DNA of 64,000 bases, from the NCBI RefSeq assembly GCF_003019035.1, contig NZ_CP027447.1. The stretch is one strand, 5' to 3'. Under the pieces are notes generated by a model, which saw nothing but the letters and a program-made list of their open reading frames with translations, was not told the origin of the DNA and did not search any database. Made by a program: the position numbers and the translations under genes. How positions within the stretch are numbered: the stretch's first letter is position 1; each line of letters opens with the position of its first letter. Origin of the DNA: Escherichia coli. Its GTDB lineage: Bacteria > Pseudomonadota > Gammaproteobacteria > Enterobacterales > Enterobacteriaceae. Below are positions 4,937 to 46,567 of the stretch, in pieces.

Positions 4937-4991
4937 TGATGTTCAGGAATGCCCGGTAATTTGCATTATCGGGCATTTTACCGAACGGGAA

Positions 4992-6134: not shown

Positions 6135-6208
6135 AGCAGGTCTCTCAAAATAGGGGAATGGGGCAGGGCAACGAGTGAACGAAGGGAACCGGTGGTTCCC
6201 TTAATTCA

Positions 6209-7096: not shown

Positions 7097-7113
7097 GATA
7101 AATACCTCAGGGA

Positions 7114-7896
7114 TTAAAATTGAGTCTCGTTTTTTAGCCAGCGTAGACTTTCAGTCGTTGTCGTAGATGGAATATATTCGCAACCAATCCATCCCTGATA
7201 ACCAATCTGGTCTATATAATTTAACAACCACGGGTAATTAATTTCTCCCGTCCCTGGTTCATGACGCCCAGGGTTATCGGCTAATTGAATATGTCCAATG
7301 TTATTCAGGTTGTTTTTGATTGTTGTAGCAATATTCCCTTCCATGATTTGCATATGATAAATATCGTATTGGTAGCGCAAATCAGGATGTTTTACATCAT
7401 GAATAATATTGAGAGCTTGTCTGGTATTGTTAACAAAAAAACCGGGAATATCTTTTGTATTAATGGCTTCCAGAACTAACTTTATCCCATGAGAAGCCAA
7501 TTTATCTACCGCATAGCGCAAATTTTCGACCAGTGTTTCATGACATTGTTCATGCGAATAACCACCTGGATGTTTTCCTGCAAGGCAATTAACTTGTGAA
7601 CAATTAAGGGCCAATGCATACTCTATTGCCCTGGAAACGCCCTCCTGAAATTCTTTTGCCCGACCAGGATGACATGCAATACCCCGTTCACCCTCTTGCC
7701 AGTTACCCGCAGGAAGATTAAACAGAACCTGCGTCAGATTATGTTGATGCAGTTGCGAAACTAACTCATCTGCAGAAAAGTCATAGGGGAAAAGATACTC
7801 AACGCCGTGGAATCCTGCGTGACTTGCCTGTGCAAAACGTTCAATAAATGGATACTCGGTAAAGAGCATAGATAAATTTGCTGCAAACTTTGCCAT
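7114..7896 (-). CDS. Hydroxypyruvate isomerase
   Basis: 260 aa; conserved Hyi blocks (ANLSMLF, GERGIACHPGR, LVENLRYA, QYDIYHMQIMEG, GTGEINY); paralog of K-12 Hyi. Confidence 0.85.
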   Translation of the reverse strand: MAKFAANLSMLFTEYPFIERFAQASHAGFHGVEYLFPYDFSADELVSQLHQHNLTQVLFNLPAGNWQEGERGIACHPGRAKEFQEGVSRAIEYALALNCSQVNCLAGKHPGGYSHEQCHETLVENLRYAVDKLASHGIKLVLEAINTKDIPGFFVNNTRQALNIIHDVKHPDLRYQYDIYHMQIMEGNIATTIKNNLNNIGHIQLADNPGRHEPGTGEINYPWLLNYIDQIGYQGWIGCEYIPSTTTTESLRWLKNETQF

Positions 7897-7908
7897 AATC
7901 CTGTTTCC

Positions 7909-9648
7909 TTATAAATCGAGAATTTCTTCAAATTCTGTGACTTTATTAATGTCAGGTCCCATAGCGATATTAGTCACGCGTTCAGTAATAATTTCCACAA
8001 CAACAGGTACGTGAAATTCGTCACGCAAACGCTGGGCTTCTTGCAGTGCAGGCGCAATATCCTGTGATGCGAATACGCGAATCGCTTTACATCCTAATCC
8101 TTCAACCACAGCTTTATGATCAACGCCATAACCATTAATTTCTGGAGCATTAATATTTTCAAATGACAGTTGAACGCAATAATCAATATCAAATGCACGT
8201 TGTGATTGACGAATCAAACCAAGATAAGCGTTGTTAAGTAAAATATGGATATACGGAAGATTAAATTGTGCGCCGACGGCTAATTCTTCAATCAAGAATT
8301 GAAAATCGTAATCACCGGATATTGCCACAACGGGAACAGATGGATCAGCTTTTACCGCGCCCAGTGCTGCGGGCATTGTCCAGCCTAGCGGCCCAGCCTG
8401 ACAGGCATTAATCCAGTGGCGTGGGCGGTAAACATGTAAAAATTGGTTTGCGGCGATTTGCGCCAGACCAATTGTCGAAATATAGCGTGTCTCCGGTCCG
8501 AAAACCTTATTCATTTCGTGATACACGCGCTGCGGTTTAATTGGATTGCAGTCAAAGTCTGAACGACGAAGCATTGTGCGTTTACGCTCGGCACATTCGG
8601 CAATCCAGCGACTGCGGTCTTTCAGTTCTCCACGTGACTTCATATCACGGGCGACCTGAATAAATAGCGTTAAGGCGCTTTCAGCATCAGAAACAATGCC
8701 CAGATCCGGCGCAAATATCCGGCCAATTTGTGCAGGTTCGATATCAACATGAATGAATTTGCGGCCTTCGGTGTAGGTCTCAATGGCTCCGGTATGACGG
8801 TTTGCCCAACGGTTACCGATACCAAAAACAAAATCGGAGGCCAGATAACTGGCGTTACCATAGCGATGACCCGCCTGACATCCCATGCGACCAATCATTA
8901 GGGGATGATCATCTGATAATGCGCCCCAACCGCGTAAGGTTTGAATGACGGGAACGCCAGTTAACTCGACAAACTCACGCAACAATTCACTCGCTTCGGC
9001 GTTAATAATGCCACCGCCAGCGATGATGACGGGCTTTTCGGCGCCATTTAGCATTTCTAATGCGCGTACGGCCTGGGCCCGTGTTGCCTGAGGTTGCCAG
9101 GGGGTTAGTGGCTGATAGAGATCGATATCAAACTCAATTTCGGTCATCTGAACATCAAAAGGGAGATCTAAAAGAACCGGGCCAGGGCGGCCTGAACGCA
9201 TTTCCCAGAAGGCTTTCTGGAATATCCCCGGCAACTGACCCGCTTCGAGAATTGTGCGAGCCATTTTGGTTACTGGCGTGGCGATAGCCTCAATATCGAC
9301 GGCCTGGAAATCTTCTTTATGAAGTTTTCCTACGGGAGCTTGACCAGTAATGCAGAGAATAGGAATGGAATCCGCGGAGGCGGAATAAAGCCCCGTAATC
9401 ATATCAGTGCCCGCAGGGCCTGATGTGCCAATACACACGCCAATATTGCCATTCTGACTGCGGGTGTAACCTTCAGCCATATGCGAGGCGCCCTCAACAT
9501 GACGGGCCAGAATATGATCAATACCGCCTGATTTTTTCATCGCGGCATAGAGTGGGTTGATTGCTGCGCCGGGTACACCAAAAGCAACGCTAATGCCTTC
9601 TTTTTTCAGTATTTCTACTGCAGCTTCGATTGCACGCATCCTCGCCAT
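7909..9648 (-). CDS. Glyoxylate carboligase (tartronate-semialdehyde synthase), ThDP-dependent
   Basis: 579 aa; colinear with K-12 Gcl ([20 protein letters not shown]..., [43 protein letters not shown]) but clearly diverged, so a second gcl-type gene rather than the canonical locus. Confidence 0.88.
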
Positions 9649-10026
9649 ACATTATTTCTCCTGATATTTACGCTGAGTTGAATAGTCAGTCAATTTTGGA
9701 ATTTAACGACGAAATATCTTTGAGGAAATAAAAGGGCAGAACAAATTTCGCTGCACTGTTTCACAGTGAAACAACTCGTATGCCTGTGTTGTTTCAGTTT
9801 GAATAATGATAAATATCAAACGCAAAGATTTCAGATGTTGTTGGCAGTTTTAAAATTTATCTAATGTATTATTCGTTTTTTATTGCTTTAACGGTTATTC
9901 TTTCTAATGTATGTATGGTTACATTGTTGATAAGGTCTGTTTTTGTAATGATCCAGACTAGATATTATTGCGTTTGATCAAGCTTACTGGCATAGCATTC
10001 TGATACAAGTTCTGAAAATGACTTGA

Positions 10027-11976
10027 ATGGATATTATTATAATGAATAAAGAGTCGTATCATAATGATCTAAAAAATAAATGGAAAATGTTTGTTAAGCA
10101 TGGTTGGGTCGCGACAAATTCGACTAATCATGTGATGCTGAGGTCATGGCAAAAATGTCTCAAGCATTGTGACCCTCGCCACTGGAACACGCCTGTCAAA
10201 GCTTCCGGGCAAACATTGCAGACGATTTTTTCTCGTAACGAAGAGTTTATTAGAATTTCACAAAGAGTTGTTGAAGACCATTTCACTCTGGCTGGTGACG
10301 ACCGGTTGGCATTTTTGATCATTGACCCACACGGCTGGGTTCTATCGTTGAATGCAGCAGGCGATTATTCCAGTCAATTGCGAGAGTTAGGAATTGAATC
10401 TGGTATGTCATGGGCCGAAGATGGCATTGGAACCAATGTATATAGTCTTTGTCGGGAAACAAATTTATATACACAACTGGAAGGAGCAGAACATTTTAGT
10501 GAACAGCTACATTGTTATGCGATGAGCGCTGCTCCGGTCATTGATTATTATGGTAATATCCATGGATACATTGTATGTATAATTGAAACTACCGCCGAGC
10601 TTGTTAAATTAAAAACATCATATTCATGTGCAACAGAAATCGCTAATTATATCTATATTGAGAATGAACAAAAGTTAATAAACAAAGTACTTTGCCAGCA
10701 TAATGCTGTGATTGAATGCATGGATGACGGTTTTATTTGTTGGAATAGTCATTCTTTAATTACGATGGTTAATTCTCAAGCACAAACACTACTGAATATT
10801 GATAAAGAAAGTTTAATTGGTCAGAACATCCGAAAAGGATTCGTATTTCCGCCGATTTTGAATGAGGCAATTACACAACGGAACAAACTATCGCAAAAGC
10901 AAATTGTCCTCGAATGCCGTGGCGAATTTATTGAACTTATGGTTACCCTTCGCCCGTTAAGCGATGGTTCGTTTTTACTTTTTCTTCATCCATTAGACAA
11001 AATCAGGAAAATAGCCCAACAGCAAATAAGCACTAATGCAAATTTTACCTTTGACAGTTTACATGCGGCTTCAGGTGGTATGAAGCAGGTATTACTTATC
11101 GCTCGCCGGGCAATTAAATCCATCTCTCCGATTTTGATCAATGGCGAAGAAGGTGTGGGAAAATTGAGTTTGGCGATGGCAATACATAATGAGAGCGAGC
11201 AACGTGATGGGCCATTTATTTCTGTAGATTGTCAGATGCTATCACCAGAAAATATCTTACACGAACTTCTTGGCTCTGATGTTGGCCCTTCGCCATCGAA
11301 ATTTGAACTGGCTCATAATGGCACCTTATATCTGGATAAAGTCGAATATCTATCAGGGGAAGTTCAGAGTGTTTTATTGAAAGTATTGAAAACGGGGCTT
11401 GTTACTCGCTCAGACAGCCATCGTTTGATCCCCGTACGCTTTCGCCTGATTACATGTACCAGTAGTTCGTTACGTGAGTACGTGCAACAAGGGGCTTTTA
11501 GCCGACAGCTATATTATGAGATCTCCATGAATGAAATTGAAATTCCGCCATTGCGCAAACGTCGTGAAGATCTCAAGCAAATGATTGACGATATTATTGA
11601 TAAGTATCAGGAGCGCACTCGAAAAAAAATGACAATCACGCCTGACGCAAATTCAGTTCTGCTTGAGTACCGTTGGCCTGGAAACATCTCCGAGTTCAAA
11701 AATCGAATGGAGAAGGTATTTATTAACTGCAATCGGCTTGTCCTCGGATTAGAGAATATTCCTCTGGATATCCGACAAAATAACAGTAGTGGCGACGATG
11801 ATATCCCTCATCTTACTTCACTGGCAGAATTGGAGATGCAAGCTATTGAGCATACATGTCGTGTCTGCGAATGGAATCTAACTAAAGCAGCTGAAGTATT
11901 AAAAATTGGTCGTACAACATTATGGCGCAAGCTTAAAATCTATAATCTCTATCCAAATGTTGAGCATGCAGATTGA
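10027..11976 (+). CDS. DhaR-like transcriptional regulator (sensor domains + degenerate AAA+ sigma54-interaction domain + Fis-type HTH)
   Basis: 649 aa; central block INGEEGVGKLSLAMAIHNESEQRDGPFISVDC ... FSRQLYYE and C-terminal IGRTTLWRKLK closely parallel E. coli DhaR (CGEEGVGKALLSQAIHNESE ... IGRTTLWRKMKQ), with no GAFTGA motif. Divergent from the gcl-type operon. Confidence 0.75.
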   Translation: MDIIIMNKESYHNDLKNKWKMFVKHGWVATNSTNHVMLRSWQKCLKHCDPRHWNTPVKASGQTLQTIFSRNEEFIRISQRVVEDHFTLAGDDRLAFLIIDPHGWVLSLNAAGDYSSQLRELGIESGMSWAEDGIGTNVYSLCRETNLYTQLEGAEHFSEQLHCYAMSAAPVIDYYGNIHGYIVCIIETTAELVKLKTSYSCATEIANYIYIENEQKLINKVLCQHNAVIECMDDGFICWNSHSLITMVNSQAQTLLNIDKESLIGQNIRKGFVFPPILNEAITQRNKLSQKQIVLECRGEFIELMVTLRPLSDGSFLLFLHPLDKIRKIAQQQISTNANFTFDSLHAASGGMKQVLLIARRAIKSISPILINGEEGVGKLSLAMAIHNESEQRDGPFISVDCQMLSPENILHELLGSDVGPSPSKFELAHNGTLYLDKVEYLSGEVQSVLLKVLKTGLVTRSDSHRLIPVRFRLITCTSSSLREYVQQGAFSRQLYYEISMNEIEIPPLRKRREDLKQMIDDIIDKYQERTRKKMTITPDANSVLLEYRWPGNISEFKNRMEKVFINCNRLVLGLENIPLDIRQNNSSGDDDIPHLTSLAELEMQAIEHTCRVCEWNLTKAAEVLKIGRTTLWRKLKIYNLYPNVEHAD

Positions 11977-12262
11977 TGCTTTTCAAATTGAAAGAATTTT
12001 AATATCGCAGTGTTTCATTTTGATGCAGTGCTTTAATGGTATTGAAATATTGTGATGTGCTCCATAAATGCCAATGTGGTTATTAGCCAGGGAGACGGAA
12101 AATGTGTTTACACTCCTGAAATAATAAAAAATAGGCAAAGAGAGATGATCTCCTTGTATGTCTGTATTAGCATGATGTTGCTTGTTAATAATTAAAAATA
12201 TCAACGCGCTTATATAAGCGCGGGGGATTGTTTTACTCAATTATTGAATACGGAGATAAAGT

Positions 12263-13633
12263 ATGGAATTTTATCTGGAACCCGCTCGTAATATACCTGT
12301 ACTGGCAACCACGGAAGTGTTAGTTGTTGGTGGTGGTCCATCGGGTATTGCCGCAGCAATGAGTGCCGCTCGTGAAGGCGCAGCTACTATGCTGATTGAA
12401 CGTTTCGGTTGTTTTGGCGGAATGATGACAACGGCTGGCGTCGAGTCAATTGCCTGGTGGCGTCATGAAAATACGGTAGAGTCAGGTGGACTGGCACGCG
12501 AAATAGAAGAAACGGCAAAATCAATGGGGGCGTCCAGCCCTGAGCCGCAATCGAATAGTCAGGCTATTAACGCCGAGCGTTTCAAACTGGTTGCGGATGC
12601 AATGCTTGAACAGGCAGGTGTGCGCCGCGTACTACACATTACCGCCGTTGATGTTATTAAGCAGGGCAATAATTTACTCGGCGTAATAACAGAGAGTAAA
12701 TCTGGTCGTCAGGCTATTTTGGCGAATGTCATTATTGACTGTACTGGCGATGCCGATATTGCATGGTTTGCCGGAGCACCATTTATTAAGCGTGAACGTG
12801 AAGACCTGATGTGTATGACAACCGTTTTTAGTTGCGCAAATGTCAATAAAAACGCGTTCATGCAAAATATTAAGAGCACGGAACCTAAATATGGAGACTG
12901 GGGGGCGGATGAAGAAAATAAAAACTGGTCTTATGATGTTCATGAATCTTGTCGCGATATGTTTAGCCCTTATCTGGGTAAAGTCTTTGCGAAAGGAAAG
13001 TCGGCAGGAATTATTCCAAAAGATGTGACGTTAGGCGGTTCCTGGAGTACGGTCACCGAGTATGGTGATGCGAATTACTTGAACGTTGTCAGCATCCCTG
13101 CCGTCGATTGTACGGATGTTTTTGACCTGACGCGTGCAGAAATAGAAGGCCGCAAGCAAGCCATGCAGGCGATTGAAGCGTTGCGTCAATTCCAGCCAGG
13201 ATTTGAACAGGCACAATTAAAAAATTTCGGTATGACGGTGGGAACAAGAGAATCAAGACATATTATTGGGCGAGTCCAGCTTACGGAAAATGATATTTGT
13301 AATGAGGGACGTCATGCGGATTCAATAGGGGTATTCCCTGAGTTTATAGATGGAAATGGTCATCTTAAATTACCTCTTGAAGCGAACTATTTTCAAATCC
13401 CTTATGGCGTAATGATTCCGCAGCAAGTTGAAAACCTGTTGGTTTGCGGACGGGCAATCGATGCAGATAATTTCGCCTATGCGACAATCCGTAATATGGG
13501 GTGTTGTATTGTCACTGGAGAAGGTGCAGGGACTGCCGCTGCTATTGCCATTAAAAATAACACTACCGTTTCACAGGTAGATATTCAGACGGTACAGGAA
13601 CGCTTACAGCAAAATGGCGTAAAAGTCTTTTAA
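12263..13633 (+). CDS. FAD-dependent oxidoreductase (paralog of 1730-3094)
   Basis: 456 aa; VLVVGGGPSGIAAA Rossmann motif and CTGDADIA motif, colinear with the ORF at 1730-3094; first gene of an operon with the downstream transporter. Confidence 0.7.
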   Translation: MEFYLEPARNIPVLATTEVLVVGGGPSGIAAAMSAAREGAATMLIERFGCFGGMMTTAGVESIAWWRHENTVESGGLAREIEETAKSMGASSPEPQSNSQAINAERFKLVADAMLEQAGVRRVLHITAVDVIKQGNNLLGVITESKSGRQAILANVIIDCTGDADIAWFAGAPFIKREREDLMCMTTVFSCANVNKNAFMQNIKSTEPKYGDWGADEENKNWSYDVHESCRDMFSPYLGKVFAKGKSAGIIPKDVTLGGSWSTVTEYGDANYLNVVSIPAVDCTDVFDLTRAEIEGRKQAMQAIEALRQFQPGFEQAQLKNFGMTVGTRESRHIIGRVQLTENDICNEGRHADSIGVFPEFIDGNGHLKLPLEANYFQIPYGVMIPQQVENLLVCGRAIDADNFAYATIRNMGCCIVTGEGAGTAAAIAIKNNTTVSQVDIQTVQERLQQNGVKVF

Positions 13634-34813: not shown

Positions 34814-35770
34814 ATGACAAACTTCACGACCAGTACGCCGCATGACGCATTATTTAAATCCTTTCTCACGCACCCTGACACCGCGCGGGATTTTATGGAG
34901 ATCCACTTACCCAAAGATTTACGTGAACTGTGCGATCTCGACAGCTTAAAACTGGAATACGCCAGCTTTGTCGATGAAAAATTGCGGGCGCTACATTCCG
35001 ATATTCTGTGGTCGGTAAAGACCCGCGAAGGAGATGGCTATATTTATGTGGTGATTGAACATCAGAGCCGCGAGGATATCCATATGGCCTTTCGCCTGAT
35101 GCGATATTCCATGGCGGTGATGCAGCGCCATATCGAGCGTGATAAACGCCGGCCGCTACCGCTGGTCATCCCGATGCTGTTTTATCACGGTAGCCGTAGT
35201 CCTTACCCCTGGTCTTTGTGCTGGCTGGATGAATTTGCCGACCCGGCTACCGCACGGAAGCTTTATACCGCAGCGTTCCCGCTGGTGGATGTCACTGTCG
35301 TGCCAGACGACGAGATTGTGCAGCATCGCAGAGTCGCCCTGCTGGAGTTGATCCAAAAGCATATTCGCCAGCGCGATCTAATGGGGCTTATTGATCAACT
35401 GGCAGTATTACTGGTTACAGGGTGCGCTAATGACAGCCAGATAACCGCGCTGTTAAATTACATTTTACTGACTGGCGATGAAGCGCGTTTTAATGAGTTT
35501 ATCAGCGAACTTATCCGTCGAATGCCACAACACAGGGAGCGAATAATGACGATTGCAGAGCGAATTCATAATGATGGATGGCTGTTGGGAAGGGAGAGGG
35601 GGAGGAAAGAAGGGAAAGAAGAAGGGGAAAAGAGCCTCCTCCGATTGTTGTTGCAGAATGGGGCGGATCCTGAATGGATACAACGATATACCGGACTTTC
35701 GGCAGAGCAAATGCAGGCATTAGATCAGCCCTTGCCTGAAAGCAAGCGCGATCCATGGATCGAGTACTAA
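34814..35770 (+). CDS. rpnD: Rpn-family recombination-promoting nuclease (YhgA-like, PD-(D/E)xK), RpnD/YjiP-YjiQ equivalent, apparently intact
   Basis: 318 aa; N-terminal [24 protein letters not shown] and [11 protein letters not shown] motifs typical of YhgA-like transposase_31 proteins; Gly/Glu/Lys-rich stretch ([16 protein letters not shown]) near the C-terminus. Position corresponds to K-12 yjiP/yjiQ. Confidence 0.75.
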
Positions 35771-37807: not shown

Positions 37808-38146
37808 TTAGCGTGGCGTTTTGCTACTAATCACCCCAATAAAATCCTGCACCTGCTTTTGTTTACGCGCCGACAGCTTGCACACCTGGCGCAGCGACAG
37901 CATCAGTTCGCTCTCTTCGGCGGCGGGTGGTTGGGCGGTGAGGACAATACAGCCTTCCATCACTTTGACATCTACCGCCGTGCCGGTGGCAAAACCGGCG
38001 GTTTCCAGCCACTGACCTTTCAGGGTGATGGCGGGAATACGGCTGTAATCCGGGTAGCGACTCGCATAACTCACGGTTAATTGACGGTTATTTGCCGGGG
38101 AGACTTCTGCTTCGAACGGTTGTGCAATAGAATGCGTGTCAGTCAT
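37808..38146 (-). CDS. symE: SOS-induced toxin SymE (type I toxin-antitoxin toxin, AbrB-fold)
   Basis: 112 aa, [52 protein letters not shown]... matches E. coli SymE; lies at the distal end of the hsd cluster as in K-12. Confidence 0.85.
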
Positions 38147-38216
38147 GATTACTATTCCTTAGAAATAGGGATTGTGATTAGCGGTGCGGGTGTGTTGGCG
38201 CACATCCGCACCGCGC
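38140..38216 (+). ncRNA. symR: Putative SymR antisense sRNA (antitoxin RNA for symE)
   Basis: Assigned by position only: in K-12 SymR is transcribed antisense across the symE start and 5' UTR. A TAGAAT -10-like hexamer lies just upstream inside symE on the + strand, and a 9-bp-stem hairpin (GCGGTGCGG ... CCGCACCGC) occupies the predicted 3' part. Ends are approximate. Confidence 0.4.
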
Positions 38217-38223
38217 TAAATAC

Positions 38224-38360: not shown

Positions 38361-41300
38361 TTAGTTTAAAACACTCATATGATGTTCTTTAAAATTCTCT
38401 GCCTGTGCCAGCACTCCCATATAAACATCATCATTCGCTACTGGCGGGAACTTATGCTTGTGTAGAAGAAGAATAAGTTCAACTTTTAGTTTCGCTTTAA
38501 TATCATCGCGCTTACTCCAGTCAGGATATTTCGATGTGTTGTCAACCACGCTTTTCATCTCTTTTGCCAGTGACAGCATTTTTTCATCGTCATAGGTGAA
38601 CTGATATTTATCGCGCATATGAGCAAGAATGTCGAAAAACGCTTTTTCTTCAATATCAATACCTAAATCGGCCCATGTGCCCATTTCGGTTTTAATATCA
38701 TAGATAATATCGGTCATTTCCTGACTGAATGTATCGAATTCTTCACCGTTGAGTACATCATCTTCTCGCCGCTCATTATAACGATCTATAATCGCCTGGA
38801 AGCGGCGGGTGAAGTTAATCCCTTGCAACTGGTTCACTTTCTTGAAGTCGCTGATCGCTTTTTCCAGTAATTTTTGTAATAACTGGATCTTTGTTGCCGG
38901 AAGTTTGATCTTGTTAATTCGCGCCAGATAATCTTCGTCAAAAATATCGATGGATTCCGCTTTTTTATCGCCAAGAAAATAAATTTCTTCTACGCCATCA
39001 GCTTTTAGCGCTTCTGCAATCATTTCACGAACGCGTGCATTCATCTGGGTGACATCCGGTGCGTCACCTTTCGTCAGTTTGAAAACAATTGAACGAACAG
39101 CAAGATAATAGTGAATATGATCACGTTCTGTCTGTGATAGTGCTTCACTGCCGCAGCAGACGTCGTAGGCGGCTTTCATGCGTTTAACCAGTCCCATAAA
39201 ACGACGTTCAACTTTCTGGGTACGCAGAACAAATTCCGCCGCGCGGTTGAGGCAGGATAATTGCGCTTGTGGCTCACCACTAAAATAATCCCGACTGTCA
39301 AATTCGTAAAAGACTTGCCCCAACAAATCGAGATGGTTTTTAACTTCTATTACCGATTGCTGAATATCTTCAAAGTTGGTGGCATCAATGCGGGAATACA
39401 TTGCCAGTGCCTGGTTCATCTGACTTTTAATGCCGATGTAGTCCACCACTAACCCTTTACTTTTGCCTTCCAGTTTACGGTTAACGCGAGAAATGGTCTG
39501 GATAAGATTATGTTTTTGTAAGGGTTTATCAATATAGATGGTATCCAGTTCCGGGACGTCGAAACCAGTCAGCCACATATCAACAACAATGGCAATTTTG
39601 AAATTCGATTTAGCGTTTTTGAACTGCTTATCCAGCTCTTTACGATATTCTTTTGTGCCCAGTAAATCATAAAGCGCCTCGTCGTCATCTTTACCGCGCG
39701 TCATGACCATCTTCACCATTTCTGAAGGCGGTAACTCTTTCTGCTCCTGTTCCGTCAGGACGACGCCATCGGGGGCTTGCTTCACTTCAAACCAGGTAGG
39801 GCGAATAGCTTTAAGCTGGCGGTAGAAATCCCAGGCAATTTCACGGCTGGCACAAACAAACATGGCTTTGCCTTTTACGGTGGAACCTTCGGCTACGCGT
39901 TTTTCATAATGTTTAGCAAAATCTTCCGCGAGGGCTTTTAACCGATCTTCATCACCCAGTACCGCATTCATGGTTGCGGTGGCTTTTTTGCTTTCGTCGA
40001 TTTGCCACTCATTGGTGCCTGCGTTTGCGCACTCTTCGTAATACTTTTCGACTTCTTCCAGTTTGCTGGAGTCCAGGATCACTTTAGCCGCACGGCCTTC
40101 GTACACGATGCGTACAGTGATTTCATCCTGAACGGATTCGGTCATGGTGTAACTGTCGATCACCTCACCGAAGACATCGAGCGTCGCGTCAATCGGTGTG
40201 CCGGTAAAGCCAACATAGGTGGCGTTTGGCAGTGAATCGTGCAGGTATTTCGCAAAGCCATAAGTTTTGCGCACTTTTCCGCTTTCTTTATCGACGATGA
40301 CTTTCTGGTCGAGGTTAACCTGGCTGCGATGTGCTTCGTCTGAGATGCAAATGATATTGCTGCGTTCAGAAAGGAGTTCGGTGTCTTCGGTGAATTTATG
40401 GATCGTTGTCAGGAATACACCGCCACTATTGCGTCCCGCCAGTTGATTACGCAAATCTTCACGGCTGATAACAGGAACGATGGTGTCGTCGCCAATGTAA
40501 TTTTTGGCGTTGCACATTTGCGCAGAAAGCTGATCGTCCAGATCGGTGCGGTCGGTGATCAAAACAATGGTCGGGCTGGCAAACTCCACGCTCTTCATCA
40601 AAAGACGCGTTAAAAATTGCATGGTGTAACTTTTGCCACAGCCCGTTGCGCCAAAGTAGGTGCCGCCTTTACCGTTACCGAAAGGTTTACGCGCTTGCTT
40701 GATGCTGTAATAGAGTTTGCGGGCGGCATAGTACTGCGGATATCGGCAGCAAATTTTTACTTCGTGCTTAGCTTTATCCGGGAAGCAGATAAAGTTTTTA
40801 ATCACATCCAGCAGACGTACCGGATGAAACAGCCCCTGAATCATTGAGTGCAATGACGGAATTCCGTCCTGTTCACGGTTTTCATTACCGGTGACTTTGC
40901 GCCATGAGTAAAAATATTCATAGGGCGCAAACAGGTTGCCCATCCGGTTATTAACGCCATCGCTAATAATGCAGAGCGCGTTGTAGATAAACAGTTGCGG
41001 AATATCCCGGCGGTAGCGTTTACAGAGCTGCTTCCAGGCATCACCTATACTGGCTTCCTGCTCGCGCACCGCGCTTTTAAATTCAAAGACGACCAATGGC
41101 AGACCATTGATATAGAGAATGCCGTCAGGAATACGAGTCTGATTATCTTTGCCGGAGATTTTAAGCTGGTTAACAATCTTAATCCGGTTAAGCGGCGGAT
41201 TAATATAGGAGGGCGGGAGTTCTGCCGCCTGTTGCAACGGGACATCTTCGGCGTCAAATATCTGGCGCAGTGCGGCAGGTAGATGCCGGGTGTCGAGCAA

Positions 41301-41624
41301 TTCAATATAGAGATCTTTTTGTTGCCGATCGTCGCGTTTGAACAGAAAACCATTTGCCAGCCAGCGACAAAATGTTTTGTTGCTTTCATAAAGATCGGAG
41401 GCCGGAAGCGTGGTGAACTGTTTGATCAGTCGCTGAATCTCTTCTTCAGTAATGCCATCAGGCTGGTAGCGTGCCGCTAAATAATGACGGAGATCGTCTT
41501 CGATAATGACCTGATCGAGACTTGAACGAGGGACATTATCGCCGATCAGGTGTTGATATCCCTGATCCTGTAATAGTTCAATGATCGCTTGTTCTAATTT
41601 TGCTTCACTGAAAGAGAGACTCAT
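38361..41624 (-). CDS. hsdR: Type I restriction enzyme R subunit (HsdR), not EcoKI-type
   Basis: About 1087 aa; conserved nuclease motif (VVFEFKS), DEAD/DEAH helicase Walker A (GATGCGKSYTM) and helicase motifs. Start set at the ATG (MSLSFSEAK...) preceded by GGAG; the track ORF begins at an upstream TTG. The sequence and length differ from K-12 EcoKI HsdR. Confidence 0.88.
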   Translation of the reverse strand: MSLSFSEAKLEQAIIELLQDQGYQHLIGDNVPRSSLDQVIIEDDLRHYLAARYQPDGITEEEIQRLIKQFTTLPASDLYESNKTFCRWLANGFLFKRDDRQQKDLYIELLDTRHLPAALRQIFDAEDVPLQQAAELPPSYINPPLNRIKIVNQLKISGKDNQTRIPDGILYINGLPLVVFEFKSAVREQEASIGDAWKQLCKRYRRDIPQLFIYNALCIISDGVNNRMGNLFAPYEYFYSWRKVTGNENREQDGIPSLHSMIQGLFHPVRLLDVIKNFICFPDKAKHEVKICCRYPQYYAARKLYYSIKQARKPFGNGKGGTYFGATGCGKSYTMQFLTRLLMKSVEFASPTIVLITDRTDLDDQLSAQMCNAKNYIGDDTIVPVISREDLRNQLAGRNSGGVFLTTIHKFTEDTELLSERSNIICISDEAHRSQVNLDQKVIVDKESGKVRKTYGFAKYLHDSLPNATYVGFTGTPIDATLDVFGEVIDSYTMTESVQDEITVRIVYEGRAAKVILDSSKLEEVEKYYEECANAGTNEWQIDESKKATATMNAVLGDEDRLKALAEDFAKHYEKRVAEGSTVKGKAMFVCASREIAWDFYRQLKAIRPTWFEVKQAPDGVVLTEQEQKELPPSEMVKMVMTRGKDDDEALYDLLGTKEYRKELDKQFKNAKSNFKIAIVVDMWLTGFDVPELDTIYIDKPLQKHNLIQTISRVNRKLEGKSKGLVVDYIGIKSQMNQALAMYSRIDATNFEDIQQSVIEVKNHLDLLGQVFYEFDSRDYFSGEPQAQLSCLNRAAEFVLRTQKVERRFMGLVKRMKAAYDVCCGSEALSQTERDHIHYYLAVRSIVFKLTKGDAPDVTQMNARVREMIAEALKADGVEEIYFLGDKKAESIDIFDEDYLARINKIKLPATKIQLLQKLLEKAISDFKKVNQLQGINFTRRFQAIIDRYNERREDDVLNGEEFDTFSQEMTDIIYDIKTEMGTWADLGIDIEEKAFFDILAHMRDKYQFTYDDEKMLSLAKEMKSVVDNTSKYPDWSKRDDIKAKLKVELILLLHKHKFPPVANDDVYMGVLAQAENFKEHHMSVLN

Positions 41625-41690
41625 ATCGCGCTCCAACCCTGGCTAATTTCTGGTAAGCATTCCCGTATCAGTAGAAAACCTTACCAGAAA

Positions 41691-41710
41691 GCCCCTGATT
41701 TTACAGGGGC
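41691..41710 (-). terminator. Hairpin immediately downstream of hsdS (possible attenuator/terminator before hsdR)
   Basis: 7-bp perfect stem GCCCCTG/CAGGGGC with a 6-nt loop, about 8 nt after the hsdS stop, followed by T-rich sequence on the minus strand; an adjacent 10-bp inverted repeat (TTCTGGTAAG ... CTTACCAGAA) lies in the hsdR leader. Confidence 0.35.
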
Positions 41711-41718
41711 AAAATGCG

Positions 41719-43113
41719 TTATGCAGTTTCTGTATCGGTGTTGAGATCCGGAAGATCTTCCCGGGATAGCTCACCGGAGATGAGTTTCGGGAGCAGGGTG
41801 TCGCGGAGGTTGCTCAGGACTATTTGATTATTATTATGTGACTTGTCAATCCAAGGCATAACGATATTATAAAAAGTATTAATTATTTCAACATCTGGCA
41901 TAACTACATGTTCAGCCTCAAGAAAATATTTTGTCTGGAAGTTAGCGATTCCTGTACTTTGGTTTTGGTATTCCCACATTTTTCCATCGTTATATATTTT
42001 ATTGAGGTGTAAACTAATTATTAGCCCTATCTCTATAGATAACGGCTCAAACTTGCGACAAAAACTAGCAGGTTCAATAATACCCCCTAATCGACTTATA
42101 ATCTGTTCAGTCATGAAAATTGAACGGCCAGTTGACTGCGTTGGACTTCCTCCTGAAACTTCTATTATAATATCACCATTATTAATTTTTCTTTTTTCGA
42201 GTTTTTTGGGTTCTACCCATCTACATGGGGCAGAACTCATTTTCCCTGAAATTAACTCCGGGATATCAGTACCGCGCACTATCACTGCTTGAATTGTATG
42301 CTTTTCATCTCTGGAATCACTCCCCCAGTCACCACCAATTGTATTTTTTAGTAAACTATTAACATTTGAAAACTTCCAACCTTTAGGAATTAAACCTAAC
42401 TCCGTTTCTTCAAATTCACTTGGGAAAAGCGAGCGGATTTCCGCCGGAAGCGGTTTAAAATCTGTACTATTACGTACTTTTTGACGCAACTCGGCACGAG
42501 ATTGCAGAGCCTCCGGGATTGGATTTCCTGCATCCAGAGCGTTATCAACCACCGGATCAAAATCCACAAACCAGGATTTGAACAGGGTTTGGGACATTTG
42601 TTCTAATGACTTATTTATTACTTCATTGGATTTTAGCTTACTAAATATAAGAGTGTTTGTTTTTGCGATATGTTGGCAATATTTATCTGGTGCAAGATTA
42701 AATTCATAATCTAATATGGCTGTTTTATCACCCCTTGGCATTTTGGTGCCTTTGGATGTTAAAACAGTATGTTCGATGAATTTTTGATCCATTAATACTG
42801 ATAGAATATAATTAGAATTAATATTTTTTTTAGGACGGAATACAATTACATCGTTAGAACAGCCACCAGTTCGATCTGCAAGCCATAGTTTTTTAAAATA
42901 TGTTCTGATATTCGAGAATAAAATATCTCCAGAATGAAATTTTGTTATTTTCCCTGTGCTAGGTTTACTATTTGCTATTGATATACCTCCAAAATTGGTA
43001 AGCATATTTTCAGTTGATATGTAATCGCAAAGACTAATTTGCGATACATCAACTTTAGTAGTGATGATATCTACAACTTCTTTAAGTTTTATTTTCTCCC
43101 ACTTACTCCCCAT
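41719..43113 (-). CDS. hsdS: Type I restriction-modification specificity subunit (HsdS), two target-recognition domains
   Basis: Start MGSKWEKIKLKEV... overlaps the last 11 nt of hsdM (ATGGGGAGTAA); AT-rich coding sequence with two variable regions separated by a conserved central segment, as in HsdS proteins. Confidence 0.85.
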   Translation of the reverse strand: MGSKWEKIKLKEVVDIITTKVDVSQISLCDYISTENMLTNFGGISIANSKPSTGKITKFHSGDILFSNIRTYFKKLWLADRTGGCSNDVIVFRPKKNINSNYILSVLMDQKFIEHTVLTSKGTKMPRGDKTAILDYEFNLAPDKYCQHIAKTNTLIFSKLKSNEVINKSLEQMSQTLFKSWFVDFDPVVDNALDAGNPIPEALQSRAELRQKVRNSTDFKPLPAEIRSLFPSEFEETELGLIPKGWKFSNVNSLLKNTIGGDWGSDSRDEKHTIQAVIVRGTDIPELISGKMSSAPCRWVEPKKLEKRKINNGDIIIEVSGGSPTQSTGRSIFMTEQIISRLGGIIEPASFCRKFEPLSIEIGLIISLHLNKIYNDGKMWEYQNQSTGIANFQTKYFLEAEHVVMPDVEIINTFYNIVMPWIDKSHNNNQIVLSNLRDTLLPKLISGELSREDLPDLNTDTETA

Positions 43114-44722
43114 AACCCAGCACCTCCAGATTCTGGCGAATCGCACGATCCAGTTCTTCCGCCTGCTTCATCTGCTCAAACAACGTCTTCGACAATTCGC
43201 GCATTTTCGTCTCAAATGCCACGCCGTCCTCTTCCTGCTCGGCTGCACCTACATAGCGGCCCGGTGTCAGAACGTAGTCGTTATCTTTAATGTCTTGCAG
43301 GGTCGCAACTTTGCAGAAGCCAGCCTGGTCTTCATATTTTTCCAGCTTGCTGTCACCACGCGCAATCCGTGCAGCCAGTTCTTCCGGCGTACTGCGCCAG
43401 GCATGGTAGGTATCGGCGATGGTGGCAATATCTTCCGTTGTTAACTCTTTAGTTGTGCGGCTAATCATGGTGCCGAGGTTACGCGCATCAATAAACAGCG
43501 TCTCGCCCTGACGATCACGATAACCTTTGGCCGGATCGGCAGCCTTCGATTTGGTCATAAACCATAAACACACCGGGATCTGCGTGGTGTAAAACAACTG
43601 ACCTGGCAGAGCGATCATGCAGTCAATCAGATCATTTTCGATCATCTGTGCACGGATCTCGCCTTCACCGCTGGTGTTAGAACTCATCGAACCGTTTGCC
43701 AGCACAAAACCTGCTGTGCCGTTAGCCGACAGCTTGGAGAGCATATGCAAAATCCAGCCGTAGTTGGCGTTACCGGTTGGCGGCATACGATACCCAGCAA
43801 AACGTGGGTCTTTGGTTAATTCGGCTTCATTACGCCAGTCTTTCAGGTTGAACGGCGGGTTCGCCAGAATGTAGTCGGCTTTCAGGTCCGGGTGCTGGTC
43901 GCTAAAGAAAGTGTTTGCCGGTCGTTCGCCGAGGTTAGCTGAAAGACCGCGAATGGCGAGGTTCATTTTTGCCAGTTTATACGTCGTGGCAGTCAGTTCC
44001 TGACCATACAGCGCGATATCACGGCTTTTACCCTGATGGCTCTCGACAAACTTCACCGACTGCACGAACATCCCCGCCGAACCGCAGCACGGGTCATAAA
44101 TTTTGCCCTGAAAGGGTTCGAGCATTTCAGTTAACAGCGTAACCACACATTTAGGCGTGTAGAACTCACCACCGCCTTTGCCTTCAGTTGCGGCAAACTT
44201 ACCGAGGAAGTATTCGTAAACGCGTCCGACCAGGTCTTCTTTCGATAACGTTTCAACGTCAGTTTCGTGTGCCAGCGTTTCGATGTTGTCGATGGTATCA
44301 ATCAGTGACGCCAGTTTTTTGGTTTCCAGATTCTGACGGCTGAAGTAGTTGTCTGGCAGCGCGCCTTTCAGGGTTGGGTTACGTTTCTCAATGGTCGAGA
44401 GGGCGGTGTCAATACGAACCGCAATATCGTCCTGTTTGGCATTTTGTTTGATAAACGACCAGCGCGCCTCTTCCGGCAGGTAGAAAATGTTGTCCTGCTG
44501 GTAGAACACTTCCATCTCAAGGAAGTCAGCTTGCCCATCGGCAATCATTTTTTTGCGGCGTGCTTCAAACTTATCGCTGATGAATTTCAGGAACACGAGG
44601 CTCAACACCACGTGCTTGTATTCGGAGGACTCAACGCTACCGCGAAGCTGGTTTGCTGTATCCCATAATGTTTCTTCAAAGCCTTTCTTTGCTTTGGCTT
44701 TTTTAGTTGGTGCTTTGGCCAT
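43103..44722 (-). CDS. hsdM: Type I restriction-modification N6-adenine DNA methyltransferase subunit (HsdM)
   Basis: 539 aa; AdoMet-binding region (YDPCCGSAGMF) and catalytic NPPF motif (LANPPFN); the N-terminus (MAKAPTKKAKAKKGFEETLW...) differs from K-12 EcoKI HsdM. Confidence 0.9.
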   Translation of the reverse strand: MAKAPTKKAKAKKGFEETLWDTANQLRGSVESSEYKHVVLSLVFLKFISDKFEARRKKMIADGQADFLEMEVFYQQDNIFYLPEEARWSFIKQNAKQDDIAVRIDTALSTIEKRNPTLKGALPDNYFSRQNLETKKLASLIDTIDNIETLAHETDVETLSKEDLVGRVYEYFLGKFAATEGKGGGEFYTPKCVVTLLTEMLEPFQGKIYDPCCGSAGMFVQSVKFVESHQGKSRDIALYGQELTATTYKLAKMNLAIRGLSANLGERPANTFFSDQHPDLKADYILANPPFNLKDWRNEAELTKDPRFAGYRMPPTGNANYGWILHMLSKLSANGTAGFVLANGSMSSNTSGEGEIRAQMIENDLIDCMIALPGQLFYTTQIPVCLWFMTKSKAADPAKGYRDRQGETLFIDARNLGTMISRTTKELTTEDIATIADTYHAWRSTPEELAARIARGDSKLEKYEDQAGFCKVATLQDIKDNDYVLTPGRYVGAAEQEEDGVAFETKMRELSKTLFEQMKQAEELDRAIRQNLEVLGYGE

Positions 44723-44785
44723 GATGAACTCTGTTCAGATAAATTGGGTCGCTATTGTAATGGTAGAGACGGCAGATTTCGCCCT

Positions 44786-45952
44786 TTAATCCATCTCCAG
44801 CTCATCAAACAACTGCAAATCTACATCCAGCAATTCCACTGCATTGCTGCGGCGAATGCCGACGTTATTTTCGATTAACAGTTCCAGTAAGCGATCGCCG
44901 TCGATAAGCGTAATGGGCGCGGCCCCCGGAAAGAGCGCCGCTTCTGCACATTTCGCTGCAAATTTCCCGGTGGTGATGAGCGTACCGCGAATGGCCTTGT
45001 GGTAAGGCAACGCTCCGCGCAACTGGTCGATATACGGTCGAGTGATGGTGTTCTGCATTCTTTTGACCTGCACCACTTCGGTAATAGTGGTGATGCCGAC
45101 CTGCACCTGACCAATCACGTCCACACCTTTATCGCCTGAGGCTTTGGTCACTTCGACCTGCTCGTAGCCCATTGCTTCCAGTAATTGACCGACCAGTTGT
45201 TCAAATTTGTACGGGTTCATCGTGCTGATTTGTTCGCGCAGCAGCTCTTTTTGCTGTTCGTTATAGCGTTTTACCGCTTCCAACAGCTCTTTACGCGGAT
45301 CGCTTTTTCGTGCAGGCAACGCTTTTCCAAGCCAGGCGCGCCCGGTATCGGTGATGCGATAGCTCATGCCTTCACGGTTAACCATGTCACGGTCGATAAG
45401 GTTATAGAGACGGGAGTAGAGCGTGCTTTTCACTGAACTTGCTGACGCGAATTTCGAATGCTGATGCAAAAAGGCCTGCCATTCCGGCAATAAATCGGCG
45501 CGGCGCGACATTTCCCGGCCAGCCAGCAGCTCAAGCAGTTGCAGAATGCCTTCCTGGTCGTCCAGTGAACGCAGCGTTTTTTCGTCATCTTGCAGGAATT
45601 TTTGCCCGCGCGAGGTGGGCTGCCAGGTATCGTCTGGCGTGCTTTCCATCAGCTCAAACTGGGGATAGTTGAGGAATAAGTAGCAGCCGTAGCTGTGGCG
45701 CGGGTTCAATATGTGATTATCGGTATCCCAAATACGACGGGCGATGTCGGCATCTTCACCCGTTAAGCGTTCGCTGATCCACAGGTCAGGTTCCGACCAG
45801 TCAACGGGTTTTTGCGGCGTTCCGGTTTGCTCGTGAATGGCAGTAATCATATTGCGCACCGCTTTCAGGGAATAGCCTGAGACGGCTTTCATCATAGCCT
45901 TAACTTGCGCATAGGTAGGAAAAAGCGGGGTAATGACTTTGTAGTTTTTCAC
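44786..45952 (-). CDS. Mrr-like restriction endonuclease family protein (extended N-terminal region + Mrr-type PD-(D/E)xK catalytic domain)
   Basis: 388 aa; C-terminal third carries Mrr-catalytic-like blocks (GDKGVDVIG ... VQVKR ... GTLITTGKF ... LIDGD); N-terminal ~240 aa have no K-12 Mrr counterpart. GTG start preceded by AGGGA; 63 bp upstream of hsdM on the same strand. Confidence 0.65.
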   Translation of the reverse strand: MKNYKVITPLFPTYAQVKAMMKAVSGYSLKAVRNMITAIHEQTGTPQKPVDWSEPDLWISERLTGEDADIARRIWDTDNHILNPRHSYGCYLFLNYPQFELMESTPDDTWQPTSRGQKFLQDDEKTLRSLDDQEGILQLLELLAGREMSRRADLLPEWQAFLHQHSKFASASSVKSTLYSRLYNLIDRDMVNREGMSYRITDTGRAWLGKALPARKSDPRKELLEAVKRYNEQQKELLREQISTMNPYKFEQLVGQLLEAMGYEQVEVTKASGDKGVDVIGQVQVGITTITEVVQVKRMQNTITRPYIDQLRGALPYHKAIRGTLITTGKFAAKCAEAALFPGAAPITLIDGDRLLELLIENNVGIRRSNAVELLDVDLQLFDELEMD

Positions 45953-46105
45953 GGTAATCCCTTAACGACAGCGAGGTGTTTAGTGTGCCATGTCAGGCGA
46001 GAAATTCTATTGGATGAATCAAGTCCAACTCACACATTGTCAATTTCATGGTTGATTATTCGAAACGTGATGCTATTTCCAACATCAACGCTATAATTGC
46101 AGAAT

Positions 46106-46135
46106 AATTGTACATACATTTTTGTATATACAATT
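46106..46135. promoter_or_regulatory. Near-perfect 13-bp-arm palindrome (candidate operator / -10 region) upstream of the brnT remnant
   Basis: AATTGTACATACA-TTTT-TGTATATACAATT, with one mismatch between arms and an internal perfect palindrome TTGTATATACAA, ending about 14 nt before the brnT ATG; typical of an autoregulated TA promoter. Confidence 0.45.
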
Positions 46136-46148
46136 AGGGATGGCAACT

Positions 46149-46277
46149 ATGCCAATGGAGTTTGAATGGGATGCAAATAAGGCCAAAGGTAATCGGGTGA
46201 AACATGGCATCCGCTTTGAAGATGCGGTGTTAGTGTTTGATGATCCACAACGAACGGAATCGCTATGAGCATGGTTA
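46149..46277 (+). pseudogene. Truncated BrnT-like (DUF497) ribonuclease toxin remnant
   Basis: Translation MPMEFEWDANKAKGNRVKHGIRFEDAVLVFDDPQRTECYEHG* has the conserved DUF497 N-terminus (FEWD..K...N..KHG..FE.A..VF.DP) but stops after 42 codons, against about 90 aa for intact BrnT toxins. Confidence 0.5.
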
Positions 46278-46567
46278 AACATAAACGAGGGACCTCCTCT
46301 ACACTCGATGTGCAGCATGAGGCCGAACTGAAGGCGCTGGCGAATAAATCCGACGAAGATATTGATTACAGTGATATCCCACCTTCCAGCGATGAGCAAT
46401 GGTCTAACGCAGAACGCGGTAAGTTTTATCGGCCATTGAAAACTCAGGCCTCGGTGCGTATTGATTCTGATGTGATGGAATGGTTGAAGCGACCAGGTAA
46501 AGGCTATCAAACTCGCCTGAACGCAATTTTACGTGAAGCGATGCTGCGCGATCAGAACAAAAAATAA
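46265..46567 (+). CDS. BrnA-like antitoxin (CopG/RHH-related, COG3514-type), apparently intact
   Basis: 100 aa; C-terminal GKFYRPLKTQASVRIDSDVMEWLKRPGKGYQTRLNAILREAMLRDQ matches the conserved BrnA antitoxin signature (GYQTRINAILR); overlaps the 3' end of the toxin remnant. Confidence 0.6.
   Translation: MSMVKHKRGTSSTLDVQHEAELKALANKSDEDIDYSDIPPSSDEQWSNAERGKFYRPLKTQASVRIDSDVMEWLKRPGKGYQTRLNAILREAMLRDQNKK

Follow-up and report, generated by a model that had tools for sequence, protein, structure and literature searches.

What does a nuclease gene do at the edge of a type I restriction–modification operon: does it serve the neighbouring system, guard it, or act on DNA of its own choosing? The question is raised by a locus in a stretch of 64,000 nucleotides of Escherichia coli DNA (contig NZ_CP027447.1 of assembly GCF_003019035.1), here called the window, in which a gene for a 388-residue Mrr-like nuclease stands upstream of hsdM. 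A preliminary description, made from the sequence by itself, had offered two readings of this gene: a modification-dependent (type IV) restriction enzyme co-expressed with the type I system, or an uncharacterised nuclease effector whose N-terminal region is a sensor. Here we dissect the protein into its domains, follow its N-terminal module into other proteins and compare its gene neighbourhoods across species. On balance, the protein is probably a stand-alone modification-dependent (type IV) endonuclease of the Mrr lineage that would complement the neighbouring methylase-based system, a reading that draws on sequence comparison and on analogy with characterised enzymes. The first of the two earlier readings is preferred to the second on the strength of the invariant catalytic residues, the occurrence of the N-terminal module in McrB-like and GmrSD_N-containing proteins and the recurrent embedding of the gene in type I and bacteriophage exclusion (BREX) loci.

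The nuclease half

The gene and the parts of its product are as follows (AF2, AlphaFold2 model; PGAP, Prokaryotic Genome Annotation Pipeline; ORF, open reading frame; pI, isoelectric point).

44786..45952, minus strand: coding sequence of the Mrr-like nuclease, 388 amino acids (aa), stop codon included (ORF list; PGAP; match to PADLOC PDC-S02)
45587..45952, minus strand: lobe 1, residues 1–122, predicted helical (motifs GTPQxPVDW..PD.WI..RL and NPR(H/Y)xxG; AF2; no Pfam match)
45317..45586, minus strand: lobe 2, residues 123–212, predicted PadR/MarR-like winged helix (structural match of the model)
45215..45316, minus strand: long linker helix, residues 213–246 (AF2 helix 219–244; aligns with EcoKMrr 137–165)
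44876..45226, minus strand: Mrr_cat PD-QxK nuclease domain, residues 243–359 (Pfam PF04471)
45119..45121, minus strand: codon of catalytic D278 (GAC), in GVDV, aligned with GIDG of EcoKMrr
45062..45070, minus strand: codons of Q295-V296-K297 (CAG GTC AAA), the QxK, aligned with QAK of EcoKMrr; Q295 at 45068–45070 and K297 at 45062–45064
44789..44875, minus strand: C-terminal tail, residues 360–388, acidic (pI 4.05), aligned with the EcoKMrr C-terminus; D378 and F382 conserved
44723–44785, minus strand: 63-bp spacer between the nuclease gene and hsdM (nuclease stop codon ends at 44786, hsdM starts at 44722)

The reading frame as first described is borne out by the ORF list and by an identical PGAP coding sequence in E. 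coli SCU-301, named 'restriction endonuclease' (WP_000800829.1); over the nuclease–hsdM stretch the window is 100% identical to that strain. The distance to hsdM and the shared orientation were also given correctly. Translation starts at a GTG codon with an AAGGGA Shine–Dalgarno-like motif 5 nt upstream, and among homologues of the nuclease P9 and Y14 are invariant and P12 nearly so; motif and conserved residues together support this start site.

The C-terminal part had been proposed to hold a PD-(D/E)xK domain of the Mrr type, and it does. Mrr_cat is matched at E 3.8e-29, the three sequence blocks originally quoted are present (GDKGVDVIG at residues 273–281, VQVKR at 294–298, GTLITTGKF at 323–331), and in a BLASTP comparison with EcoKMrr of MG1655 residues 216–383 correspond to Mrr 137–304 with 31% identity (E 1e-19), the N-terminal part of the protein showing no similarity in the same comparison. 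An alignment of 38 homologues reaching down to ~50% identity shows no variation at G273, D274, D278, E292, Q295 and K297, and the catalytic D...QxK is kept across phyla together with the whole 388-aa length. A PD-QxK site is described for Mrr in a review of these enzymes (PMC12707154). As D278, Q295 and K297 do not vary, the Mrr catalytic site is intact and the label of an inactive restriction endonuclease (REase) does not apply, even though the Pfam family NA-iREase1 (PF22722, inactive REase fold) matches the same stretch, far more weakly than Mrr_cat (E 1.7e-13).

Comparisons with solved structures and curated models point to restriction enzymes as well. The full-length AlphaFold model has a predicted local distance difference test (pLDDT) score of 84.7, and its best solved relatives in Foldseek are MspJI and AspBHI (E ~1e-5), followed by FokI. 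A phmmer search of the PDB sequences returned MspJI alone, weakly (E 0.019), and the PADLOC model mREase_IV matches the protein at E 1.4e-27.

The N-terminal module

With 388 aa the protein is longer than K-12 Mrr (304 aa), as had been pointed out, and its first ~240 aa were said to have no recognised counterpart. This assessment holds: over the first ~215–240 aa neither Pfam nor NCBIfam gives a significant family. What these libraries do return is a set of weak winged-helix matches at residues 151–208, and against the whole protein NCBIfam yields merely a sub-threshold match to Sso10a. Two families had been named as candidates, Mrr_cat and Mrr_N; the former was found, and structure prediction points to a winged helix of another kind in lobe 2, whereas Mrr_N (PF14338) has no match in the Pfam list down to E<=10.

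Even so, conservation within the nuclease family is highest in the N-terminal region (hereafter the N-module), with the motifs EQTGTPQxPVDW, PDxWIxERL and NPRHxYG. A model of this region alone, built from 32 aligned sequences among which are distant fusion proteins, reaches a pLDDT of 95.4 and a predicted template modelling (pTM) score of 0.91. The model confidently predicts lobe 2 to be a winged helix. Lobe 1 is possibly a second one, to judge only from the order of its helices (residues 55–62, 65–76 and 84–94) and strands (102–104 and 110–112). A Foldseek search of the PDB with the whole N-module gave nothing at E<0.001; the best match was the recognition domain of BpuJI (E 0.015, TM 0.37), and at that E value a tandem winged helix like that of FokI or BpuJI stays a suggestion. 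The N-module profile found nothing below E 0.05 among the PDB sequences.

Reuse of the module in other proteins

The N-module is not restricted to Mrr-like proteins. A phmmer search of the full database with residues 1–240 retrieved only 383 representative clusters, and among the best 150 of these 383 it is joined to Mrr_cat in 58, to a McrB-like ATPase in ten and to other partners in five, the remainder being module-only proteins or fragments. Pfam searches of 13 atypical carriers identified AAA_5 domains of the McrB type in four, and one each has GmrSD_N, KAP_NTPase or an added HARE-HTH domain; weak EVE matches occur in two. W52, P55, W58, I59, A71, W75, N83, P84, R85 and G116 are invariant in all fusion types.

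For the McrB-like fusions (AAA_5/McrB_lid), a gene for McrC (PF10117) lies directly downstream in two independent contigs, and in a third contig the fusion gene is followed by a gene for a DUF2357/PDDEXK_7 nuclease. Uncharacterised 'NTD-wH-NTPase' proteins paired with McrC-like subunits have been mentioned previously (Helbrecht et al., PMC11037411). Judged from the fusions identified here, the N-module takes the slot of the modification-reading DNA-binding domain in type IV systems of the McrBC type, and its position in this reader slot is the strongest argument that it directs the nuclease to particular DNA.

Two further observations concern the module. One metagenomic protein of 637 aa (P0121) carries the ~210-aa N-module twice in tandem before Mrr_cat, an arrangement that hints at repeated DNA-contacting units. 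In another locus (L009, positions 4331–5752) a methylase/restriction gene of the Eco57I type (PF07669) follows the genes for an N-module McrB-like protein and McrC, which is another pairing of the N-module with an adenine-methylase system.

Association with type I and BREX systems across species

A scan restricted to one genome per species yielded 67 loci with full-length homologues of the nuclease, spread over Proteobacteria, Chloroflexi, Bacteroidetes, Firmicutes, Planctomycetes and others. The hsd genes around them were detected by phmmer and hmmsearch with seeds from four type I systems. An hsd-like gene lies within 300 bp in 28 of the 67 loci (co-oriented in 25) and within 7 kb in 36; when the count is confined to the 40 loci with at least 5 kb of sequence on both sides the figures are 20 and 25, so that in 15 of the 40 the surrounding 7 kb hold no type I gene.

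The position of the nuclease gene (X) relative to the hsd genes varies. Enterics have X-hsdM-hsdS-hsdR. Ten species, among them members of Pseudomonas, Stutzerimonas, Thiocystis, Polaromonas and Limnobacter as well as a metagenome-assembled genome of Magnetococcales, have hsdR-X-hsdM-hsdS, the intergenic distances being −4 to +24 nt and 2 to 22 nt. X-hsdR-hsdM-hsdS and hsdM-hsdS-hsdR-X also occur, and a Firmicute locus (L036) has hsdM-hsdS-X-hsdR with 4-nt overlaps around X. Some homologues adjoin type IIG enzymes. Others are linked to BREX: in Modicisalibacter the gene comes after BREX genes, first pglZ and then the brxD and helicase genes, and in two Desulfonatronovibrio contigs it comes after the gene for BrxL, with PglZ encoded earlier in one of them (L034). 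In the BREX loci L027, L031 and L034 the gene stands after the last called BREX gene and in none of them between BREX genes. Where type I genes are missing the neighbours are other defence genes, including SIR2/pAgo-like (prokaryotic Argonaute), DrmD-like and PDC-S39 genes.

Some of these operons hold more than one additional gene. The type I operon of Thiocystis contains, besides the nuclease homologue, a nucleotidyltransferase/HepT-like (MNT-HEPN) pair (L003, positions 11266–11920), and in a Ctena symbiont seven unidentified ORFs lie between hsdS and hsdR (L037, positions 5691–12380). Operons of this kind behave as multi-passenger defence cassettes.

Probable independence from the adjacent hsd genes

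Three observations speak for autonomy of the nuclease. Pairs of nucleases that are 70–85% identical have HsdM neighbours whose median identity is ~32% and which belong to at least five clusters below 40%. Close nucleases beside unrelated HsdM proteins mean that the gene changes its type I partners. An intact nuclease gene is present in E. coli 2016C-3878 beside a deletion that fuses the N-terminus of hsdM to the C-terminus of hsdR. Conversely, the same hsdMSR family is found at another locus that has no nuclease gene, the homology starting exactly at the hsdM ATG. Within E. coli the nuclease gene occurs without intact hsd genes, and hsd genes occur without the nuclease gene.

The locus in Escherichia coli

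The other features of the locus are listed below.

43103..44722, minus strand: hsdM, 539 aa, type I methylase subunit (TIGR00497, EcoKI comparison, PGAP)
41719..43146, minus strand: hsdS, specificity subunit (ORF list and PGAP; PGAP start at 43113)
38361..41636, minus strand: hsdR, restriction subunit (TIGR00348, E 4e-139; PGAP; PGAP start at 41624)
37808–38146, minus strand: symE, product 93% identical to K-12 SymE
38141–38217, plus strand: symR antisense antitoxin RNA (Rfam RF01809, 93 bits)
46265–46567, plus strand: brnA antitoxin gene, intact (within 46149–46567)
about 46149–46250, plus strand: remnant of the brnT toxin gene, upstream of brnA
34814–35770, plus strand: Rpn-like ORF, 318 aa, directly after the yjiR region with no IS621 between
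46055..46146, minus strand: two sigma-70-like hexamer pairs, candidate promoters, ~100 and ~165 nt upstream of the GTG
41691..41710, minus strand: GC-rich terminator-like hairpin with T-run, in the 82-bp hsdS–hsdR gap 41637–41718 (pattern match only)

The type I system differs from that of K-12. Its HsdM matches TIGR00497 at E 1e-50, with a score of 172.8 bits that stays under the NCBI curated cutoff of 242.75, and has only 24% identity to HsdM of EcoKI. By sequence comparison the system is not of type IA, and its gene order is hsdM-hsdS-hsdR. The nuclease gene lies at the 5′ edge of this cluster, outside rather than within the hsd genes.

Read from yjiA, the Immigration Control Region of the window consists of brnA with the truncated brnT, the nuclease gene, hsdM, hsdS, hsdR and symE/symR. 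No mrr of the K-12 type and no mcrBC was found in the 64-kb window. The preliminary description had placed the gene on the opposite strand to K-12 mrr and in a different position. The first part is right; the second has to be given up, as mrr of K-12 is found in that very slot, flanked by yjiA and the hsd genes, in reverse orientation. From its location the nuclease gene looks like an alternative 'Mrr allele' of the region, which fits a statement in the review cited above that the type I families of the Immigration Control Region are accompanied by distinct type IV families (PMC12707154). That review gives type ID, a candidate type for the system in the window, as 12% of the loci of the region, near the share of genomes with the nuclease gene reported below.

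Among 5426 complete E. coli genomes 880 (16%) carry the gene, in all cases on the chromosome and with 95–99% identity. It is colinear with the hsdM of the window in 801 of them, including strains of sequence type 131 (ST131) and Nissle 1917, leaving ~79 carriers without a colinear full hsdM. The plasmid collection contained three records with the gene, one of them of 834 kb, and the single match in the phage collection is a Salmonella contig.

Some observations on the surroundings of the gene may be added. The interval between the start of the nuclease gene and brnA is shorter by 158 bp than in a strain with intact brnT-brnA. With brnT reduced to a remnant, the brnA of the window is an orphan antitoxin gene adjoining the promoter region of the nuclease gene. 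symR is the sole match to an Rfam family across the window. A copy of IS621 (IS110 family) that is located downstream of yjiR in SCU-301 (L001, positions 22235–23215) is missing from the window, which must therefore stem from another strain or from a variant free of this element.

A pattern scan of the nuclease strand found no promoter-like or terminator-like site in the 63-bp spacer. The numbers of promoter and terminator matches in the region do not exceed the expectation from shuffled sequences and so cannot decide on co-transcription. The signals permit a joint nuclease–hsdM–hsdS transcript without showing it. The hairpin after hsdS suggests that such a transcript would end there and that hsdR would be transcribed separately, like in other type I systems.

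Relation to catalogued and characterised systems

The protein belongs to a family that is already catalogued. PADLOC model PDLC04796 of PDC-S02 matches it at E 2.1e-207 (686.7 bits), aligning residues 1–386 with positions 1–383 of 390. PDC families comprise genes embedded in type I restriction–modification, BREX or defence island system associated with restriction–modification (DISARM) loci and were released as candidates (Payne et al. 2024, bioRxiv 10.1101/2024.01.29.577857); the type I and BREX embedding that defines PDC-S02 was reproduced independently by our survey of 67 loci. PDC-S02 is a catalogue entry without an assigned mechanism, and the family is a public phage-defence candidate. 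A literature search returned no paper on the E. coli nuclease itself, and a search combining Nissle 1917, type I and Mrr found nothing. The protein might, as the preliminary description allowed, have been a routine component of its hsd family with a defined non-nuclease function; no such role emerged for it. What is new, in that the literature examined did not contain it, is the division of the protein into domains, the recurrence of its N-module in proteins of the McrB, GmrSD and KAP types and the swapping of partners.

EcoKMrr is the nearest characterised relative. The linker helix, the Mrr_cat PD-QxK domain and the C-terminal tail are homologous end to end, both genes use the slot next to yjiA, and both products are single polypeptides without an NTPase domain. 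They differ in the N-terminal part, where ~215 residues in two lobes stand against one winged helix of ~90 residues in EcoKMrr, and in the orientation of the genes: that of the window is reversed relative to yjiA and co-oriented with hsdM at 63 bp, whereas mrr is divergent from hsdR. MspJI and AspBHI (type IIM/IV) are built on the same plan, with a reader at the N-terminus and a PD-QxK cutter at the C-terminus; their readers are β-rich, SRA/PUA-like and base-flipping, whereas the putative reader described here is predicted to be all-helical with a winged helix. Some McrB-like proteins encoded with McrC begin with this same module of ~210 aa, but the window protein has neither a GTPase nor a McrC partner and joins the module directly to the nuclease.

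With respect to genomic setting the closest parallels are TgvAB and BrxU, in which a type IV enzyme is encoded within or abutting a methylase-based system and in the same orientation. TgvAB is a type IV enzyme in a Vibrio type I locus with a proposed complementary role against modified phages that evade the host system (PMC11411939), and BrxU is a type IV enzyme with a complementary role in a BREX locus (cited in bioRxiv 10.1101/2024.01.29.577857). Both are DUF262/DUF1524 His-Me nucleases with NTP-binding domains, unlike the winged helix–Mrr_cat protein without NTPase, and anti-phage activity has been demonstrated for them whereas the protein of the window is known from its sequence. Where relatives of the nuclease gene stand between hsd genes and the stop and start codons overlap, they resemble prrC in the type IC hsd operon of EcoprrI; Pfam and PADLOC detect no ABC ATPase or anticodon-nuclease domain in the window protein.

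Proposed mode of action and alternatives

In the mechanism that we propose, the protein would be an NTP-independent enzyme of the Mrr lineage in which a two-lobed DNA-reader module of ~215 aa has taken the place of the ancestral Mrr_N winged helix. This module (lobe 1 plus the PadR-like winged helix) would bind DNA carrying a base modification that the host does not make, and would have to tolerate Dam and Dcm methylation and the N6-methyladenine (m6A) placed by the adjacent type I methylase. The long helix would couple it to the Mrr_cat PD-QxK domain (D278, Q295, K297), which would cut nearby, probably after oligomerisation as in EcoKMrr and MspJI. Labour would be divided such that the type I enzyme hits unmodified DNA and the nuclease hits invaders with foreign or hyper-modification; incoming foreign methylase genes may be an alternative target. 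The gene would represent an alternative allele to K-12 mrr and would probably be transcribed with hsdM and hsdS.

Several points weigh against this reading. The N-module is not basic (pI 5.9 for lobe 1 and 6.9 for lobe 2), which is unusual in a DNA binder, and lobe 1, which has no relative of known function, could bind a protein or a small ligand instead. The partners of the N-module include KAP and BrxC-like NTPases, which are not classical type IV enzymes, and the argument for co-transcription with hsdM draws solely on spacing and on the lack of consensus signals. One unspecified PDC-S02 representative is reported to have given no protection against T4, T5 or T7 in E. coli B, in a cold-seep study in which four of eight candidates protected against T4, T5 or T7 (bioRxiv 10.1101/2024.09.26.614923). 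PDC-S02 comprises several hidden Markov models. To our knowledge, EcoKMrr likewise does not stop phages such as T4, T5 and T7.

The same failure to restrict T4, a hypermodified phage (bioRxiv 10.1101/2024.09.26.614923), is in keeping with an enzyme that does not depend on modification at all, being specific for a sequence or structure, or activated by an infection cue at lobe 1, and hitch-hiking in defence islands. The conserved aromatic and Asn-Pro-Arg signature of lobe 1, a lobe without known relatives, could form a ligand or protein pocket; Mrr_cat domains are also seen in defence proteins outside type IV, namely ZorD, LmuA and Cap4-like effectors; and the SIR2/pAgo-like, DrmD-like and PDC-S39 neighbours at loci without type I genes would suit such a passenger. 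Yet the best-supported analogies are with modification readers (the N-terminal slot of McrB and the co-occurrence with HARE-HTH and EVE domains), and an unregulated enzyme without a cognate methylase would be toxic to its own cell, while 16% of the genomes carry the gene, some of them without hsd. We regard this alternative as unlikely, though worth serious attention. That the protein does not cut at all, as a decayed relic or as a winged-helix regulator of hsd resembling a C protein with a dead REase fold, is very improbable: the NA-iREase1 match, the winged helix and the place directly upstream of hsdM are what speaks for it, but Mrr_cat scores far higher, D...QxK and the full length are conserved across phyla, the gene exists without hsd genes and the same hsdMSR is annotated as a unit without the nuclease gene. 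Both the inactive-enzyme and the regulator readings were rejected on the conservation of the catalytic residues.

A guard of the PrrC kind would be a latent nuclease that fires when a phage anti-restriction protein such as the DNA mimics Ocr or ArdA disables the type I or BREX system, so that the infection aborts or DNA is cleaved as a second line of defence, with the N-module as the sensor. The logic of PrrC in EcoprrI, and the susceptibility of both type I and BREX systems to anti-restriction proteins, are summarised by Payne et al. (bioRxiv 10.1101/2024.01.29.577857). The embedding with overlapping or nearly overlapping stop and start codons agrees with this scheme, as does the arrangement hsdM-hsdS-X-hsdR of the Firmicute locus, which is the position of prrC in EcoprrI, and a non-basic N-module fits the binding of an acidic DNA mimic less badly than that of DNA. 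A specific protein–protein mask is, however, hard to reconcile with near-identical nucleases beside unrelated HsdM families, and a toxic effector without restraint should hardly persist where hsdM and hsdR have been deleted; type I genes are missing from the surroundings in 15 of the 40 fully flanked loci, and the N-module also sits on McrBC-like and GmrSD-like scaffolds, which are direct DNA sensors. The swapping of partners, the decayed hsd genes and the occurrence of hsdMSR without the nuclease together make an effector masked by a specific Hsd complex improbable, and the guard reading was downgraded after the first two of these results. A wider version, in which the N-module senses DNA mimics or a stalled or disabled methylase system and the nuclease is a 'tripwire' that backs type I and BREX, we consider hardly more than a slim prospect, and the corollary that McrBC-like, GmrSD-like and KAP NTPase effectors employ this sensor too is just as doubtful. 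A modification-dependent nuclease complementing its methylase-based neighbour accordingly remains our preferred reading.

Implications

The pairing of a type IV enzyme with a methylase-based system is established already, as is the modularity of readers and cutters. With the theme established and the family listed, the advance would be incremental, unless the substrate or the trigger should prove unusual. About one complete E. coli genome in six has the gene. If the nuclease is active, it would be an overlooked obstacle to the transfer of DNA, to cloning and to phage therapy, affecting clinically and biotechnologically important strains such as those of ST131 and Nissle 1917. The N-module is a portable domain without a Pfam family or a relative of solved structure, and its target could add a new reader to those of DNA modification. 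Knowledge of this target would explain why the family has been placed repeatedly in type I and BREX operons.

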